DNA from: Bacteroidota bacterium
Lineage (GTDB): Bacteria > Bacteroidota > Bacteroidia > Bacteroidales > JAIPAH01
Reading direction: 5' to 3'
NCBI GenBank assembly: GCA_021767705.1
Contig: JAASSU010000001.1
Span: forward strand, 7,558 to 71,557
DNA length: 64,000 nt
Each line of letters starts with the position of its first letter. Position 1 is the stretch's first letter. The position numbers were made by a program, and so were the translations under genes. The notes under the pieces are model-generated. The model was not told the origin of the DNA. It saw nothing but the letters and a program-made list of their open reading frames with translations, and searched no databases. Shown piece after piece: positions 50,944 through 57,966 of this stretch.

Positions 50944-52311
50944 TTATACATACTTCAACCGATTTCCAGCCATCATATTCCTGATCATTTCATATCCCCA
51001 CAATCCGAGTGCAATAACCTCGATGAATCCAGAGTATCCCATTACCTGGTAAGCTCCAGGCACAAAATCAGTGGCTATCTCTGTTGTTACCCTTAAGGCG
51101 TTACCTAAATTGAGCAGGATAAAGGGAATCCACAGCGTATTGGTTTTCCGGCGGTCAATACCTGAAAAATCGGGGACAAATCTGCTGGAAACACCCACAA
51201 TCATCATCAGGATAAACCCTACCGTCAGGGCATGCCGGTAAGCTCCAAAGTAAGCATGTGAGAAAGGGATGGCATCTTCTACCAGCGGCATATAAATCCC
51301 GAAAGTATACACCGGATTCAAAACCAGCAGCACCATGGCGATGATAAACCAGATATATGCTGCACGGATAAACTTTAATCCGCGATCCGGTTTCCTGACT
51401 TTCGTTTTGAACATACGGAACTGTTTCGGAGACCCAATAGCAGCGATAAGTAATACCATAGCTGAAAGCTGATACAAAGCCATCCAAATCCGGTTTTCTG
51501 TAACCATTGAAGCAATAAATGTAACAACACTGATGGCAATGGCGCTATTCACAAAGTAAAGCAGGAAGTTCCGCCATCTTTCAGAAGGTTTTTGCAGTCC
51601 AAAGTACTCCGGTAAAATGCGAAGCGAAACGCCAAGTATCATAACCACTGCCATACCAAGAAGCTGAATATCGCGATACGGGATATTGAAGGTGGAGACG
51701 TTGAAAAGAAATTGTTCTTCCGTGTCCGAGGCTTCAAAAAGCCAGAAAATAACAGGATTAAGTATTGCAGCCAAAACAAACCAACCAAGGGCCGCATAAA
51801 CAAAACGATCCCAGTGGTCAGCGGTTCCTCCTTTCAGTATGGTTTTGGCTATCGCCAGAGCGAAGATAACAACCGCTCCTAACTGAATGATTGCAGAGAA
51901 AACACCCAGCCCAAGGAACGGAACATGGGGTTCCAATATATGCGCCACCATTTGTAAAATAAGTCCTGCTAACATTAATGGGAGCGAGGCATAAGCCAAG
52001 CGGGGCCTCCACAGGGAGGCCTGCTTGAATAGCGGAAAAGCCTGGTAGGCAAACCCCATGATAAACAGGCCAACAAAACCAAAGACCATGGCATGGCCGT
52101 GGGCCAATACCCACGAATAATCTATTGCCGCGAAATTTTTGTCCTCACCAATAAAAAAAAGGTTAATGGCACCCCACAGTGCCCCGACAGATAATAGAAC
52201 AGAAATACCGGCCACAAAGAAGGGCTTGAATATCCGCAGTCTTGCAGCCGGTTTTTCTGTAATATCCGGTTGTTCGGAATATATTGACAGATCTACTGTA
52301 TTCATATTCAA
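50944..52311 (-). CDS. NnrS-like polytopic membrane protein (NO-response family)
   Basis: 455 aa with about 12 TM and the His-rich helix WVLAHGHAMVFGF. It lies immediately downstream of an Rrf2 regulator and ytfE. The family call is by context and pattern only. Confidence 0.5.
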   Translation of the reverse strand: MNMNTVDLSIYSEQPDITEKPAARLRIFKPFFVAGISVLLSVGALWGAINLFFIGEDKNFAAIDYSWVLAHGHAMVFGFVGLFIMGFAYQAFPLFKQASLWRPRLAYASLPLMLAGLILQMVAHILEPHVPFLGLGVFSAIIQLGAVVIFALAIAKTILKGGTADHWDRFVYAALGWFVLAAILNPVIFWLFEASDTEEQFLFNVSTFNIPYRDIQLLGMAVVMILGVSLRILPEYFGLQKPSERWRNFLLYFVNSAIAISVVTFIASMVTENRIWMALYQLSAMVLLIAAIGSPKQFRMFKTKVRKPDRGLKFIRAAYIWFIIAMVLLVLNPVYTFGIYMPLVEDAIPFSHAYFGAYRHALTVGFILMMIVGVSSRFVPDFSGIDRRKTNTLWIPFILLNLGNALRVTTEIATDFVPGAYQVMGYSGFIEVIALGLWGYEMIRNMMAGNRLKYV

Positions 52312-52345: not shown

Positions 52346-52789
52346 TCAAACACTCAACCTGCTTAAAACAGCTTCTCCGTTTTCAATTTTTGTTGCCAAC
52401 GATCGAATGGTCTCCTTTTTTAATAGCTGTGTAAAAGCTTCCCTAATAGGCTCGTATTCGTTATGCAAGGGGCAGGGATTATTGGCATCGCAATGTTTAA
52501 ACCCCAAACCGCACTTAGTAAAGAAGATTTTACCTTCCATAATCATCACAACATCAAATAAATAGATTTCCTGTTGATCATCATCTGCAAAGAAAAAACC
52601 ACCACCGCGTCCACGCACTGATTTTAAAAGTCCAAACCGGGTCAGCGTTTGCATAATTTTAGCCACATACTGCTCTGGGGCATCTATATCCCTGGCAATA
52701 GCTTTGAAGCCGCGACGCTTTCCTTTCCTACTGTTCAGCTCGACAGAAACCAATGCTCTTATGGCGTATTCGGTGGTTTTGGATAACAT
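52346..52789 (-). CDS. Rrf2-family transcriptional regulator with three C-terminal Cys (NsrR/IscR-like)
   Basis: N-terminal wHTH is MLSKTTEYAIRALVSV...IARDIDAPEQYVAKIMQTL. The Cys triad is CGLGFKHCDANNPC. Confidence 0.85.
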   Translation of the reverse strand: MLSKTTEYAIRALVSVELNSRKGKRRGFKAIARDIDAPEQYVAKIMQTLTRFGLLKSVRGRGGGFFFADDDQQEIYLFDVVMIMEGKIFFTKCGLGFKHCDANNPCPLHNEYEPIREAFTQLLKKETIRSLATKIENGEAVLSRLSV

Positions 52790-52823: not shown

Positions 52824-53552
52824 TTATTCTCCGAAAAAGCTTTGGTACATCTTTTCGGCATTTGGAAAAAGAATATTGTTTTCCAGATGAATGTGCCTGT
52901 GTAAATCCTTCTCGAACTCAAAAAGCTTGTGGTACAATACCCTGAAAGTGTTACAGGCATCCGGTGGTGGATTATAGCTTTCAGATAAGGAATCAATTTC
53001 CTCAAACCTGGCCCCTTCATTTGCATGTTCCTCACGCATCATGGTGATGGGATGTGTTACATGCCCAAACTGTGGCTTCTCCGGTGTGGAACCGTTTTGC
53101 CTGGCTGTTTCCAGTTTACGAATGAAAGGAAACAGGATCAGCTCTTCTTTTTTCATATGCTGTGTTAAAGCGCCAGCCGATTCCTCAAAGAGTTGCCTGA
53201 TCTTATGCAATTCAGGATGATTGTCGCCATGTACAGAGCACACTTTTTCAAGATATTGTTGCAGAACCGGAATATTTTCCGTTACATAAGTATGGTGGTT
53301 TTGCTCGATGTAATCAGCCAGCTCCGCCGAGTTGAGGCTTTGTATATACTGGGTGTCTGCGTCACCATTCATACTCTTTTCAAGTTCGGTAACCAACTGC
53401 TTACTATCCAATCCGCGTTCACGGCAAGCCTCATCTATCGTGATGTGGCCTCCGCAGCAAAAATCAATGTTGTATTTCTCAAAAACGTCTGCAGCTTTCA
53501 GATTATCACTTACAATATCTGAAATCTTCTGCCTGCTATCTATCTGTGACAT
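52824..53552 (-). CDS. ytfE: Iron-sulfur cluster repair di-iron protein (RIC/YtfE/ScdA)
   Basis: N-terminal ScdA_N motif is FEKYNIDFCCGG. C-terminal hemerythrin-like His/Glu motifs include HHTYV, HGDNHPEL, EELILFP, EHANEG and HIHLENNILFP. Confidence 0.9.
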   Translation of the reverse strand: MSQIDSRQKISDIVSDNLKAADVFEKYNIDFCCGGHITIDEACRERGLDSKQLVTELEKSMNGDADTQYIQSLNSAELADYIEQNHHTYVTENIPVLQQYLEKVCSVHGDNHPELHKIRQLFEESAGALTQHMKKEELILFPFIRKLETARQNGSTPEKPQFGHVTHPITMMREEHANEGARFEEIDSLSESYNPPPDACNTFRVLYHKLFEFEKDLHRHIHLENNILFPNAEKMYQSFFGE

Positions 53553-53565
53553 AATTTATTATTTT

Positions 53566-53589
53566 AATAAAGATATTAAGGTCTTTATT
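53566..53589. promoter_or_regulatory. 24-bp palindromic operator candidate in the ytfE promoter
   Basis: AATAAAGAT-ATTAAG-GTCTTTATT, with 9-bp arms matching at 8 of 9 positions. It starts 4 nt downstream (minus strand) of the -7 box. A near-identical copy lies at 55614-55637. Confidence 0.55.
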
Positions 53590-53592
53590 GCG

Positions 53593-53600
53593 CAAATATA
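53593..53600 (-). promoter_or_regulatory. -7 box TAnnTTTG for the ytfE-rrf2-nnrS transcription unit
   Basis: The minus strand reads TATATTTG, 40 nt upstream of the ytfE ATG. Confidence 0.4.
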
Positions 53601-53696
53601 TAATTTTTTGTCACAACATCAATAAATAATTCAAAAAAAGGAGACTTTCTCCATTCGTCTCCTCTTATCACCTTACACAGATGCAGGGTTTTTTGA

Positions 53697-54923
53697 TTAA
53701 TTCCATTCTAGCAGCCGTTTCTCACCCTCCAGTTGCCTGATGCCCGTAGCATCCTGGCTGACTTCAACTACGCCTCTGTAGTTTTGATTTTCATCCCGCA
53801 AAGCAAAATACTGTATCAGGATAAACTTTCCTTTCATCTGTATCCAGAAATCAGCATGGTCTTTTTCTCCATTGCGAAAAGCACTGACAATCTTTTCAAC
53901 TATATGAACGCTTTCCGGTGGATGGCAGTTTTGAACTGTACGACCAATTATGGCAGGACTGCGCGGAAAAAACCGGTCTTTTGCCCTGTTAAAGAATAAA
54001 ACCTCATCATTTTCATCCACCACCGTGATATCCACGGGCAAGTGATTAAAAACCATGAGTGCCTGCTTAAATGACATTTGTCCGGTTTCCGACTGTAGCC
54101 AGAAATCCTGTGGTCTGCTTTCCTCCTGAGATTCGGGTGAAGCTTCAGATGATTTTACTTCAGGTTTATTGGGCGTCTCAATAAATGGGAAACCATACTC
54201 AAAACTTTGAAAATGCATCTCTTCCATAATTTCTTTATTTAGTGCTTCTGCAGCCACGGGATAAATTATCAGGTTTTCTTTCTGTATCATGCCAAAAACT
54301 AAAAAATAATATTTGCCGAGTTTTTTGTTAAAAGCATTCCAGGTGGATTCTTGCTGCAACAACATATTTATTATTTCTTTCAAATTCTGGCGTATATCAT
54401 CATGAAGTGACCACATTACATTTAGTGGGCGGTAACTATCGAGCGTTTTCTCAAGATAAGGAAACAGGATGTTCTCCTTTTTTACATAATGCGTTTCAAA
54501 GTCAAGAAACTCCCTGAACTTGGGCAAAAGCTCCTTTTTCATATCTTCAAACTGTTCATTTTCTTTGCCCTTAAAACTTTTCAGGATTTTCTTCACTTGG
54601 TTTAACTTAAACTTGAAAGCATCATTCTCTATTAACAAAAAGTAAAGAAATGACCCATCTGTTGGTTTTTCCCACTCATAACTCTCCAATGACTTAAAAA
54701 ACACATTCATCACTTTTTCAATGTCGCTTTTAATCATTTGGGGTGTAATCCCCATTTTTATTTGCCTGTCTTCCATTCGAAGCATGTCATGAGGCGTAAT
54801 ACTTTTAATAGCAGTATCGTACTTTACCATCAATGTCCTTACATTCTCGCCGTTCATTACTCCTAATGAAAAGGCAAGTAAATCTTCCAGACGCTTTTCG
54901 CTATTATTGATAAATTCTGACAT
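53697..54923 (-). CDS. DUF438 / hemerythrin-like + C-terminal PAS-domain protein
   Basis: N-terminal hemerythrin-like repeats include HYVKKENILFPYLEK. The C-terminal PAS-like module is VVDENDEVLFFNRAKDRFFPRSPAIIGRTVQNCHPPESVHIVEKIV...GVVEVSQD. Confidence 0.7.
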   Translation of the reverse strand: MSEFINNSEKRLEDLLAFSLGVMNGENVRTLMVKYDTAIKSITPHDMLRMEDRQIKMGITPQMIKSDIEKVMNVFFKSLESYEWEKPTDGSFLYFLLIENDAFKFKLNQVKKILKSFKGKENEQFEDMKKELLPKFREFLDFETHYVKKENILFPYLEKTLDSYRPLNVMWSLHDDIRQNLKEIINMLLQQESTWNAFNKKLGKYYFLVFGMIQKENLIIYPVAAEALNKEIMEEMHFQSFEYGFPFIETPNKPEVKSSEASPESQEESRPQDFWLQSETGQMSFKQALMVFNHLPVDITVVDENDEVLFFNRAKDRFFPRSPAIIGRTVQNCHPPESVHIVEKIVSAFRNGEKDHADFWIQMKGKFILIQYFALRDENQNYRGVVEVSQDATGIRQLEGEKRLLEWN

Positions 54924-55029
54924 AATCTTTTGTTTTTTATCGTATACAGTTTAAATATTGAAGTTTTTTGAACCTGTTAAAGCCTTGTCAAACTTCAGAA
55001 CATAGTTATTTTCTCATTCCGATCTATTA

Positions 55030-55605
55030 TCATTTTAAATCAGAACCCTCATTAATGTTTTTAAATAAATATTTATGATAATACTCATGCGTGGTTTCAA
55101 TATTGATGACTTTAGTCTTGCATTGTGATAACAAATCAAGCATCTTTCGATTACTGCCTAAAATACGTTGCTTTACAACAGATAAAATTCGCTTATTGTA
55201 AATAGCACAAAGGGGCTCTATTAAACCTCTGTGAGAAGGAACTATAATATCTGATGAATTATCAGTTTTTGATATCAGATATTCGATTAAACCTTCATTT
55301 ATATAAGGCATGTCGCAGGCAACAATTAATACACAATCGTTTTTTGTATGATAAAGGCAGGAATAAAGGCCACCAATCGGGCCGGCTAATGGATATACAT
55401 CTTCAATAACCTTGTATCCAAACTTGGAATATTCATCATAATTATTTGTGCTTATAATAATTGGGCTAACGATTTTCTCTATTGTATCAATTACATGCAC
55501 AACCATTGGTTTCCCATCCAGCTCAACCAAGCCCTTGTCTTTGCCCATTCTCTTGCTTTGCCCGCCTGCTAAAATGCATGCACTTATTGGTTGCTTATTG
55601 ATCAT
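55030..55605 (-). CDS. mobA: Molybdenum cofactor guanylyltransferase
   Basis: 191 aa with the N-terminal motif ILAGGQSKRMGKDKGL and PLAGPIGG. Confidence 0.85.
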   Translation of the reverse strand: MINKQPISACILAGGQSKRMGKDKGLVELDGKPMVVHVIDTIEKIVSPIIISTNNYDEYSKFGYKVIEDVYPLAGPIGGLYSCLYHTKNDCVLIVACDMPYINEGLIEYLISKTDNSSDIIVPSHRGLIEPLCAIYNKRILSVVKQRILGSNRKMLDLLSQCKTKVINIETTHEYYHKYLFKNINEGSDLK

Positions 55606-55613
55606 AAAACAAA

Positions 55614-55637
55614 ATTAAAGATTTTAAGGTCTTTATT
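55614..55637. promoter_or_regulatory. Second copy of the 24-bp palindrome, in the mobA/norB divergent intergenic region
   Basis: ATTAAAGAT-TTTAAG-GTCTTTATT. On the minus strand its arm overlaps a TAATTTTG box that sits directly before the mobA ATG. On the plus strand it ends 67 nt before the norB ATG. Confidence 0.55.
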
Positions 55638-55704
55638 ACTCTTTATTAATCATTTTTTATAGTTTAGCGACATTAAAATTAATATACAAATCAAAAATGG
55701 AATT

Positions 55705-57966
55705 ATGTCACACAAAAAACTTTGGATTGGATTTGGCCTGGTGGTAGGTTTATCGTTTGGAGTCCTTATTTATTATGGAGGTGAAATTTACAGGGAAAAG
55801 CCTCCGATTCCTTCAAAAGTAGTCACCAGCTCTGGTAAAACGTTATTTACTGGCCAGGAAATAAAAGATGGGATGAATGTCTGGCAATCAATTGGTGGAC
55901 AGGAGTTAGGTACAGTATGGGGGCATGGTGCTTATCAGGCTCCTGACTGGACTGCCCAGTATCTCCATAAGGAAGCAATATTTATATTAAACCACTGGGC
56001 ACAAATAGAGTATAATAAATCTTTTGAAGATCTTTCACCCGAACCTCAGGCAGCACTTAAAGCCAGGCTACAACAAGATATACGTAAAAACACTTACAAT
56101 TCGTCAACTGATGCTATCGTTATATCTGAGGAAAGAGCATTGGCTTATCAGCACCTTCATGAGTTTTATGAAAAACTTTTTATGGGAACTGAGGAATCAG
56201 GAGAATTTCATAAACTAAGAGATGCTTACAGCATTCCACCACAAACCATTAAAAGTGTGGATCGGCTGGAAAAAATGTCGGCTTTTTTCTTTTGGGCAAC
56301 ATGGGCTACCGTAACTGAGCGTCCTGGCAAAGAATATAGCTACAGTAACAATTGGCCTCCTGAAGAGCTGGTTGGCAATAAACCCACCAGTTCGCTTATT
56401 CTCTGGACAGGATTCAGCGTAATAGTGCTTCTTGCAGGCATTGGTTTGTTATCATGGTATTATGTGAGAAATCAAAAAGACGAATTCAATCATAATATCC
56501 CGGAAGTAAATCCCCTAACAGGGATGGAATTAACAGGCTCACAAAAAGCAACCCTAAAGTATTTTTGGGTTGTTTCGCTATTAATTCTGGTCCAGATATT
56601 AATGGGAATCATAACCGCACATTATGGTGTCGAGGGATTCGGATTTTATGGAATACCATTAGCTGAAATTCTTCCATACTCACTTTCTCGAACATGGCAT
56701 GTTCAACTGGCCATTTTTTGGATCGCCACTTCATGGCTGGCAACCGGGCTCTTTTTTGCACCGGCTATCGCTGGTAAAGAACCAAAATTTCAAAAATTTG
56801 GTGTAAATGTCCTCTTCATTGCTTTGCTGGTAATTGTTGTAGGCTCTTTAGCAGGACAGTGGTTCGGCATTATGCAAAAGCTCAATCTTGTTGATAACTT
56901 CTGGTTTGGTCATCAAGGTTATGAATACGTGGACCTTGGACGGTTTTGGCAAATCTTCCTGTTCGTTGGGTTATTTATTTGGCTATTCCTGATGGGTAGG
57001 GCTTTATCTCCAGCCTTGAAGGAAAAAGCAGAGAACAGAAATCTCTTGATTATGTTCCTTATTGCATCAATTGCAATAGCATTATTCTATGGTGCTGGAT
57101 TAATGTGGGGGCGTCAAACTCACCTGGCCATCGCCGAATATTGGAGATGGTGGGTTGTGCATCTTTGGGTTGAAGGATTTTTTGAGGTATTTGCTACTAC
57201 TGTTATTGCTTTTCTTTTCACCCGTATGAAATTACTTAATCCCCGCCTAGCTACAGGAGCGGTTCTTTTTGCAACAATCATTTTCCTTTCAGGGGGGATC
57301 ATTGGAACCTTTCACCACTTGTATTTTGCAGGTACGCCTGTCGGGGTGCTTGCTTTAGGAGCAACCTTTAGTGCTCTCGAAGTTGTTCCATTGGTGCTTA
57401 TCGGATATGAAGCTTACCACAATTTGAAACTAACAGAGTTGCAACCATGGGTGAAAGCCTATAAATGGCCTATTTACTCTTTTGTTGCTGTAGCCTTCTG
57501 GAATTTCCTTGGCGCCGGAATTTTCGGATTCCTCATTAATCCACCCATTGCATTGTACTATATGCAAGGCCTCAATACTACGCCCGTACACGGACATACA
57601 GCGCTCTTCGGGGTATATGGAATGTTGGGTATTGGCTTGATGTTATTTGTATTGCGAGACATGAGTCTCAATAAAAAATGGAAAGAAAAACCAATCCGTT
57701 TTGCATTTTGGGCTATAAACATTGGGCTTCTGGCGATGGTACTCTTCAGTGTTCTTCCAATAGGTTTGGCTCAAACCTGGGTTAGCGTTAAGGAAGGGCT
57801 CTGGTATGCCCGATCGGCTGAATTCATGCAATTACCGTGGATGCAAACTTTGAAATGGTTAAGAGTCATTGGTGACACTATCTTTGCAGCAGGAGCGCTA
57901 GTGCTTGTCTATTTTGTTTTTGGACTTAAGTTTGGGTGGTCGATCGAAAGCAGCAAAAAGTTATAG
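55705..57966 (+). CDS. norB: Quinol-dependent nitric oxide reductase, single-subunit (qNor/NorZ type)
   Basis: 753 aa. It has an N-terminal TM helix, a roughly 200-aa periplasmic extension without CxxCH, and then a 12-TM heme-copper-oxidase-like core with conserved His (HYGVEG, WVVHLWVEG, HHLYF, HGHTALFG). Confidence 0.9.
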   Translation: MSHKKLWIGFGLVVGLSFGVLIYYGGEIYREKPPIPSKVVTSSGKTLFTGQEIKDGMNVWQSIGGQELGTVWGHGAYQAPDWTAQYLHKEAIFILNHWAQIEYNKSFEDLSPEPQAALKARLQQDIRKNTYNSSTDAIVISEERALAYQHLHEFYEKLFMGTEESGEFHKLRDAYSIPPQTIKSVDRLEKMSAFFFWATWATVTERPGKEYSYSNNWPPEELVGNKPTSSLILWTGFSVIVLLAGIGLLSWYYVRNQKDEFNHNIPEVNPLTGMELTGSQKATLKYFWVVSLLILVQILMGIITAHYGVEGFGFYGIPLAEILPYSLSRTWHVQLAIFWIATSWLATGLFFAPAIAGKEPKFQKFGVNVLFIALLVIVVGSLAGQWFGIMQKLNLVDNFWFGHQGYEYVDLGRFWQIFLFVGLFIWLFLMGRALSPALKEKAENRNLLIMFLIASIAIALFYGAGLMWGRQTHLAIAEYWRWWVVHLWVEGFFEVFATTVIAFLFTRMKLLNPRLATGAVLFATIIFLSGGIIGTFHHLYFAGTPVGVLALGATFSALEVVPLVLIGYEAYHNLKLTELQPWVKAYKWPIYSFVAVAFWNFLGAGIFGFLINPPIALYYMQGLNTTPVHGHTALFGVYGMLGIGLMLFVLRDMSLNKKWKEKPIRFAFWAINIGLLAMVLFSVLPIGLAQTWVSVKEGLWYARSAEFMQLPWMQTLKWLRVIGDTIFAAGALVLVYFVFGLKFGWSIESSKKL

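Follow-up and report, generated by a model that had tools for sequence, protein, structure and literature searches.

NsrR, described from Escherichia coli, Neisseria, Bacillus and Streptomyces, is a nitric oxide (NO) sensing [4Fe-4S] repressor of the Rrf2 family. The consensus published for its operator is gATGyAT-N5-ATrCATc (PMC1274295), and this has been extended to two 11-bp repeats with one base pair between them (PMC4432287). According to Rodionov et al., NsrR occurs only in Proteobacteria, Firmicutes and Actinobacteria, and only HcpR is reported for Bacteroides and Porphyromonas (PMC1274295). In the current analysis we have identified two nearly identical 24-bp palindromes in a cluster of NO metabolism genes from a member of the Bacteroidales (phylum Bacteroidota). 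They lie in a stretch of 64,000 nucleotides (contig JAASSU010000001.1, positions 7,558 to 71,557), referred to here as the window, which also encodes an Rrf2 family protein. It is quite probable that both palindromes are operators of this Rrf2 regulator (52346-52789), which would repress the NO genes until NO nitrosylates its cluster.

The proposed system resembles NsrR in the family of the regulator, in three C-terminal cysteines, in the predicted autoregulation and in having as its operator an AT-rich palindrome (about 19-24 bp) that overlaps promoters. The operator layout, with arms of 7-9 bp and a short spacer, is also similar. The targets ytfE, norB, nirK, hmp and nnrS correspond to the regulon predicted for NsrR by Rodionov et al. 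(PMC1274295).

HcpR, an FNR/CRP-type protein, likewise controls nitrosative-stress genes in Bacteroidota (PMC1274295). It differs from the present system in its protein family, in its FNR-like motif and in its predicted regulon, which in Bacteroides and Porphyromonas gingivalis comprises only hcp; none of the operators of the window type is FNR-like. Rrf2 genes have also been seen beside clade II nosZ in metagenome scaffolds of Bacteroidetes, with a role that is unknown outside Proteobacteria and Firmicutes (PMC6264515). These share with the window the phylum and the linkage to N-oxide genes, and the paper defines no operator, regulon or subfamily for them. In the literature searched, HcpR is the only NO-responsive regulator described for the phylum, controlling hcp only, and no description of a Bacteroidota Rrf2 regulator of NO or of the motif reported here was found. 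The kind of switch is known, and the Bacteroidota regulators very probably form an uncharacterised subfamily with a DNA motif of its own.

The palindromes and their conservation with the regulator gene

The two palindromes, designated operators 1 and 2 (Table 1), are identical at 22 of 24 positions, the only mismatches being at positions 2 and 10, and each lies exactly where the initial annotation of the window had placed it. Operator 1 is self-complementary in its outer 8+8 bases and in the central TTAA. A symmetrised weight matrix built from 39 sites has the consensus ATAAAAGAC-N6-GTCTTTTAT. The genome scan proposed in the initial annotation has been carried out on the source assembly (3.69 Mb in 423 contigs), where operator 2 with 27.2 bits ranks first and operator 1 with 26.4 bits ranks second. 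The hits at ranks 3 and 4 score 18.2 and 17.4 bits and are both within open reading frames (ORFs). The two window copies are the only sites of at least 20 bits and the only close copies in the assembly. The pattern given in the initial annotation, allowed up to three mismatches, matched two places in the window, which are the palindromes themselves. In locally shuffled genomes, hits reaching 20 bits numbered 0.33 and hits reaching 22 bits were not seen; this expectation, together with the uniqueness of the palindromes, excludes chance. With an independent matrix made from 30 sites, none of them from Bacteroidales, the window sites still occupy ranks 1 and 2 (22.8 and 21.2 bits).

The third hit of the independent matrix, ATAAAAGTCAAAATACTCTTTTAC (G000 C249:21798-21821, 20.1 bits), is inside an ORF of 169 residues of unknown function and is probably a chance match. 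Hits of 14-18 bits were considered as further regulon members in the source genome and rejected, as they are at the shuffled expectation and lie within ORFs or beside unrelated genes. Members of the regulon may have been missed, the assembly being only 86.6% complete.

A search for relatives of the window Rrf2 protein returned 44 loci. These are from metagenome-assembled genomes of Bacteroidales (90% and about 55% identity), from Hymenobacteraceae (31 loci at about 40%, in the genera Pontibacter, Rufibacter, Nibribacter and Botryobacter) and from a few planctomycetes (about 32%). The motif, with at most two arm mismatches, is present in the ytfE upstream region of all 35 Bacteroidota loci in which ytfE is beside an orthologous rrf2 gene, and the best site reaches at least 20 bits in each of them. 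Several of these sites are perfectly palindromic, as exemplified by ATAAAAGACATTTACGTCTTTTAT in the locus L036. In the Bacteroidales relatives the sites are situated between divergent norB and ytfE genes, L010 having two and L012 and L013 one main site each. Conservation upstream of orthologous ytfE and norB genes, suggested as a check when the palindromes were first noticed, is therefore found, and it extends to rrf2.

Another 29 Rrf2 loci of Bacteroidia, for which flanks of only 1.5 kb were available, came from 301 sampled genomes of the phylum. A site scoring 20 bits or more was found in 12 of the 29. Its usual place is 40-60 bases ahead of rrf2, with a second occurrence before norB; the sites of L060 score 28.8 and 32.5 bits. 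Besides Hymenobacteraceae and Bacteroidales, the motif is carried by at least five further families of Bacteroidia (f7, f8, f9, f10 and f15). The regulon members predicted from these and other loci include norB of the quinol-dependent nitric oxide reductase (qNOR) type (L054, L057 and L060), norC-norB with a divergent ytfE and a pair of sites at about 30 bits (L115), a nirK-cytochrome c fusion (L093, L101 and L116) and the flavohaemoglobin gene hmp (L117). An extra operator precedes a gene for a plastocyanin/azurin-type cupredoxin in L009 (698-1304) and L011 (4349-4955), and this gene is absent from the window.

The control set consisted of 36 Bacteroidia genomes that have no Rrf2 hit or whose strongest one is poor, with an E-value around 1e-15 or higher except for a single genome at 1e-20. 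Six of them carry ytfE, and none of these six ytfE loci without a close Rrf2 orthologue has a site of even 11 bits within 1.5 kb. The motif is also lacking in three planctomycete loci comprising norB, ytfE and rrf2. All the features by which comparative genomics recognises an operator have been found here, namely a conserved palindrome, its co-occurrence with the regulator gene, its absence where the regulator is absent and its overlap with promoter elements. The sites upstream of ytfE, norB, norCB, nirK, hmp and rrf2 across Bacteroidia amount, as a comparative prediction, to a regulon of the NsrR type.

The inner bases GAT-nTTAAG-GTC, which are not palindromic, are common to both window copies in the same plus-strand orientation, despite the location of the target genes on opposite strands. 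Read towards ytfE, the asymmetric form is AAAGACC...ATCTTT; it persists out to the Pontibacter sites and suggests asymmetric binding or an overlapping promoter signal.

An operator-led operon of Pontibacter (L015, 1712-9150) comprises genes for a DUF2249-ytfE fusion, a hemerythrin, a DUF1858-DUF2249 protein and an NnrS-like protein, followed by rrf2, nadA and nadB. De novo synthesis of NAD, which has an Fe-S enzyme, may be a part of the NO response in this Pontibacter. In Pontibacter toksunensis (L046, 5020-6431) the match to the rrf2 orthologue is split into residues 1-58 and residues 74-145, its open frame has only 78 residues, and it abuts a norB match covering residues 434-753 only; the locus looks disrupted. 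The cupredoxin gene of L009 is followed by a multicopper-oxidase fragment of 90 residues, possibly a decayed nirK. In a Flavobacterium-like genome (L096, G147:C15) a site AAAAAAGATAATTTTGTCTTTTTT at about 1501 is found about 170 bases upstream of a gene for a PAS-domain protein of 210 residues, which may also belong to the regulon unless the site has arisen by chance.

The Rrf2 regulator and its relation to NsrR and IscR

The Rrf2 gene is the only transcription factor gene of the cluster. Its product belongs to the Rrf2 family, with scores against PF02082 (cut-off 30 bits) as given in Table 1 and 87.7 bits against TIGR00738 (cut-off 73.3). None of the curated subfamily models (NCBIfam equivalogs) reached its cut-off. 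The scores, with cut-offs in brackets, are 59.5 bits for RirA (193), 51.7 for the SUF regulator (110.65), 48.3 for IscR model TIGR02010 (207.55), 44.7 for CymR (195), 41 for IscR model NF008110 (275) and 36 for NsrR model NF008240 (182). The named homologues are labelled in the databases only as "Rrf2 family transcriptional regulator".

In an alignment of 75 sequences, which includes NsrR and IscR of E. coli as references as well as homologues from planctomycetes, C93 and C106 are present in 100% and C100 in 93% of the sequences. His109 is 98% conserved, and P107, E7 and Y8 are likewise conserved. The conserved pattern of these regulators is C-x6-C-x5-C-P-x-H, and E7 of the window protein aligns with Asp8 of Streptomyces coelicolor NsrR (ScNsrR). 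In the tree the E. coli NsrR and IscR do not fall within the Bacteroidota clade, and their branches are very long, that of NsrR measuring 4.1 substitutions per site. The closest solved structure is that of ScNsrR (5N07), at an E-value of only 1e-6.

The palindrome had been put forward in the initial annotation as a candidate Rrf2/NsrR operator, with a half-site AAAGAT resembling the AAGATG core of the enterobacterial site. Neither orthology of the regulator to NsrR nor this resemblance is borne out. The identity to E. coli NsrR is 24% and the NsrR model falls far below its cut-off, the protein is in a separate clade and has the additional conserved His109. The resemblance of the half-sites is out of register when the NsrR consensus is set against AAAAGAC-N6-GTCTTTT, and ATAAAAGAC-N6-GTCTTTTAT, with different arms and an even spacer of 6 bp, conforms neither to gATGyAT-N5-ATrCATc nor to the 11-1-11 arrangement. 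The window regulator would, moreover, act on -33/-7 promoters of the Bacteroidota type. It is best filed as a protein that is NsrR-like in its predicted working without being an NsrR orthologue, and its Rrf2 subfamily as an undescribed one that has an operator of its own.

IscR, the [2Fe-2S] Rrf2 regulator of Fe-S biogenesis, is 26% identical to the window protein. The residues C93, C100, C106 and H109 align with C92, C98, C104 and H107 of IscR respectively. The two differ in their surroundings, the window gene adjoining ytfE, nnrS and norB and not isc or suf, and in their regulons, which in the present case is predicted to consist of NO metabolism genes. The type 1 and type 2 sites of IscR have motifs different from the window operator.

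Promoter geometry and the proposed mode of repression

Promoters of Bacteroidota, as known from Bacteroides and Flavobacterium, are of the TTTG/TAnnTTTG type, and for this reason a sigma-70 promoter scan was not used. Operator 1 is situated 3 bases downstream of the -7 box of ytfE-rrf2-nnrS and 13 bases before the ytfE ATG (53552), and is predicted to span the transcription start. A candidate -33 TTG for this promoter can be read at 53622-53620, which gives a spacer of 19 bp. The equivalents of operator 1 in L009-L011 are in the same place, 3 bases past the box or, in L011, 4 bases.

Operator 2 is separated from the norB ATG (55705) by 67 bases, and the same site is found upstream of norB in L010 and L011. 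A block ATAGTTTAGC common to the window and these two loci follows the 24-mer after 22 bases in the window and L011 and after 21 in L010. It is on this conservation that TAGTTTAG is taken as the putative norB -7 box. These positions agree with those given in the initial annotation, in which the first copy was placed just downstream of a minus-strand -7 box and the second was described as overlapping the box CAAAATTA at 55610-55617 directly upstream of mobA and as ending 67 nucleotides before the norB ATG.

The only minus-strand TAnnTTTG box in the mobA/norB intergenic region is TAATTTTG, which is the one overlapped by operator 2, and its use would give a leaderless mobA mRNA. L010 and L011 have the same bases without a mobA gene behind them; this speaks against the control of mobA, and the box may therefore be a mere flank of the operator. 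No TAnnTTTG box is present in the 106-base gap between mobA and the gene for the hemerythrin/PAS protein, which is probably co-transcribed with mobA. In L061 a homologous hemerythrin/PAS gene stands behind an operator and directly ahead of rrf2. Because of the missing box and of this arrangement, the control of mobA and the hemerythrin/PAS gene by operator 2 is favoured as plausible.

In seven promoters of other loci the 18-bp core of the site ends 15-25 bases upstream of the TAnnTTTG box, over the -33 element. Six of these precede rrf2 or its operon (L054, L060, L061, L073, L077 and L078) and one precedes ytfE (L015, with the near-match box TACATTTA). In Flavobacterium-like rrf2 promoters a TTTG is found within the operator spacer, 20 bases before the box. 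Operator positions that vary while overlapping the promoter fit with steric repression.

In the mechanism that we propose, the regulator would be a dimer with an Fe-S cluster on C93, C100 and C106 and with H109 and/or E7 as the fourth ligand, and would bind AAAAGAC-N6-GTCTTTT. At operator 1, over the start of ytfE-rrf2-nnrS, it would repress its own operon. Repression of norB, and probably also of mobA and the hemerythrin/PAS gene, would come from operator 2, which is placed over the norB -33 region and overlaps the putative mobA -7 box. Nitrosylation of the cluster by NO would release the protein from the DNA and allow the genes to be expressed. Of the roles first suggested for this Rrf2 protein, autoregulation and control of norB are supported comparatively by the conserved sites, by their absence without the regulator and by the promoter overlap; control of mobA is plausible only. 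From these observations we infer the binding itself and repression rather than activation, and we take NO as the signal because the regulon consists of NO metabolism genes.

Several points weigh against this mechanism. The motif-bearing ytfE loci are not independent, 31 of the 35 coming from the single family Hymenobacteraceae. The pattern AAAAGAY-N6-RTCTTTT is genome-wide no more frequent than its reversed-pattern control, with 24 hits vs 41 in 28 regulator-positive Bacteroidia genomes and 12 vs about 27 in 35 regulator-poor ones, so that the association rests on position and not on counts. Such counts have no discriminating power, the frequency of the 20-mer in AT-rich genomes being too high; of the 24 exact hits in regulator-positive genomes, 8 are no more than about 8 kb away from the regulator gene. 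The -7 box assigned to norB is a guess with one mismatch and, if it is right, the centre of the site would be near -49, which is compatible with activation too. The regulator is not an orthologue of any characterised NO sensor, and its conserved His109 is a ligand of the IscR type, so the signal could be the status of the cluster or the redox status and not NO.

The last point can be developed into an alternative in which the palindromes are operators of the same Rrf2 protein, which would sense Fe-S status, redox or oxygen as IscR or RsrR do and would govern a response to Fe-S damage. The pattern C-x6-C-x5-C-x2-H with its nearly invariant histidine mirrors the Cys3His ligands of IscR, the Fe-S repair protein ytfE is a member of the regulon, and rrf2 of Pontibacter is followed by nadA, which encodes an Fe-S enzyme, and by nadB. 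The conserved targets norB, norCB, nirK, hmp and nnrS are, however, specific to NO, and no isc or suf genes adjoin the regulator in any locus examined, which makes sensing of this kind unlikely.

With NO kept as the signal, the regulator could act in two ways, repressing ytfE from a site on the start and activating norB from a site upstream of the core promoter. The norB 24-mer is in an activator-like position, with 22 bases between its end and the conserved TAGTTTAG block downstream, and Rrf2 proteins can activate, the activation of locus of enterocyte effacement (LEE) promoters by NsrR being cited in the ScNsrR paper (PMC4432287). Against this, the distance of 15-25 bases between operator and -7 box shows no helical phasing, the norB site of L060 is just 20 bases from the ATG, and activation of an NO reductase by the holo-repressor without NO makes little physiological sense. 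We consider such a dual role very improbable, and repression at both sites is preferred.

Hardly any weight can be given to a different, unlinked transcription factor binding the palindrome or to an RNA hairpin in the 5' leader, since the motif tracks the presence of the Rrf2 clade and, though the palindrome can fold (ytfE leader hairpin of -4.5 kcal/mol, z = -3.9), the hairpins are weak (-2.5 to -4.5 kcal/mol) without an Rfam match, for which an RNA element was rejected, the site is upstream of the -7 box and hence untranscribed in many loci, and a G-to-T change in one arm is uncompensated in seven loci, the arms being conserved in sequence and not co-varying.

Bacteroidota are abundant as partial denitrifiers and as producers or consumers of N2O in soils, sediments and lakes. 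A defined operator and a regulator clade would make the NO regulon predictable from sequence in hundreds of genomes and metagenome-assembled genomes of the phylum. The conserved histidine of the cluster motif provides a case for comparison in the tuning of Rrf2 clusters to NO vs Fe-S status. A wider proposal, which we offer only as a tentative possibility, is that a separate Rrf2 subfamily serves in Bacteroidota as the master NO switch of norB, norCB, nirK, hmp, ytfE and nnrS, with a Cys3His site like that of IscR, a 7-6-7 operator and possibly a [2Fe-2S] cluster. In the source genome one operator would then silence two divergent promoters, one of them giving the leaderless mobA mRNA. If this were true, Rrf2 proteins would have acquired the sensing of NO on two or more occasions, with differing cluster chemistry.

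Gene content of the cluster

The coordinates of the genes and of the regulatory elements are given in Table 1. The intergenic gaps of 34 bases within ytfE-rrf2-nnrS suggest a single transcription unit. The product of ytfE has the Pfam domains ScdA_N and Hemerythrin. A predicted intrinsic terminator would close the unit of mobA and the hemerythrin/PAS gene just ahead of the ytfE promoter.

Table 1. Positions of the candidate operators, promoter elements and genes of the cluster in the window
Feature	Position	Strand	Remarks
Operator 1 (candidate)	53566-53589		24-bp palindrome AATAAAGATATTAAGGTCTTTATT = AATAAAGA-TATTAAGG-TCTTTATT; upstream of ytfE
Operator 2 (candidate)	55614-55637		24-bp palindrome ATTAAAGATTTTAAGGTCTTTATT; divergent mobA/norB intergenic region, 99 bp
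-7 box of ytfE-rrf2-nnrS	53600-53593	-	TATATTTG, perfect Bacteroidota type; sole TAnnTTTG in the intergenic region; kept in L009-L011
Putative mobA -7 box	55617-55610	-	TAATTTTG (plus-strand CAAAATTA); overlaps operator 2; 4 bases before the mobA ATG (55605)
Candidate norB -7 box	55660-55667	+	TAGTTTAG; differs from TAnnTTTG at one position; 22 bases downstream of operator 2
Intrinsic terminator (predicted)	53633-53652	-	GGAGAAAGTCTCC then T7; read from the sequence
nnrS	50944-52311	-	NnrS-family haem/copper membrane protein; PF05940 80.6 bits; last gene of unit 1
rrf2	52346-52789	-	Rrf2-family regulator, 147 residues, proposed cognate repressor; PF02082 90 bits
ytfE/RIC	52824-53552	-	Di-iron Fe-S cluster repair protein; TIGR03652 243 bits, cut-off 204.7; first gene of unit 1
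Hemerythrin/PAS gene	53697-54923	-	Hemerythrin + PAS_10 protein, 408 residues; Pfam
mobA	55030-55605	-	Molybdenum cofactor guanylyltransferase; family models; possible operator 2 target
norB	55705-57966	+	qNOR, 753 residues; PF22085 224 bits, COX1 208 bits

In L010, L012 and L013 norB and ytfE are immediate divergent neighbours, and in L009 mobA is directly upstream of ytfE. In the window the pair of mobA and the hemerythrin/PAS_10 gene has been inserted as a unit that splits norB from ytfE, each of the two genes keeping its own site.

The NnrS-family protein also has a marginal match over residues 30-192 to COX1, the haem-copper oxidase subunit I (34.9 bits, cut-off 34.8).

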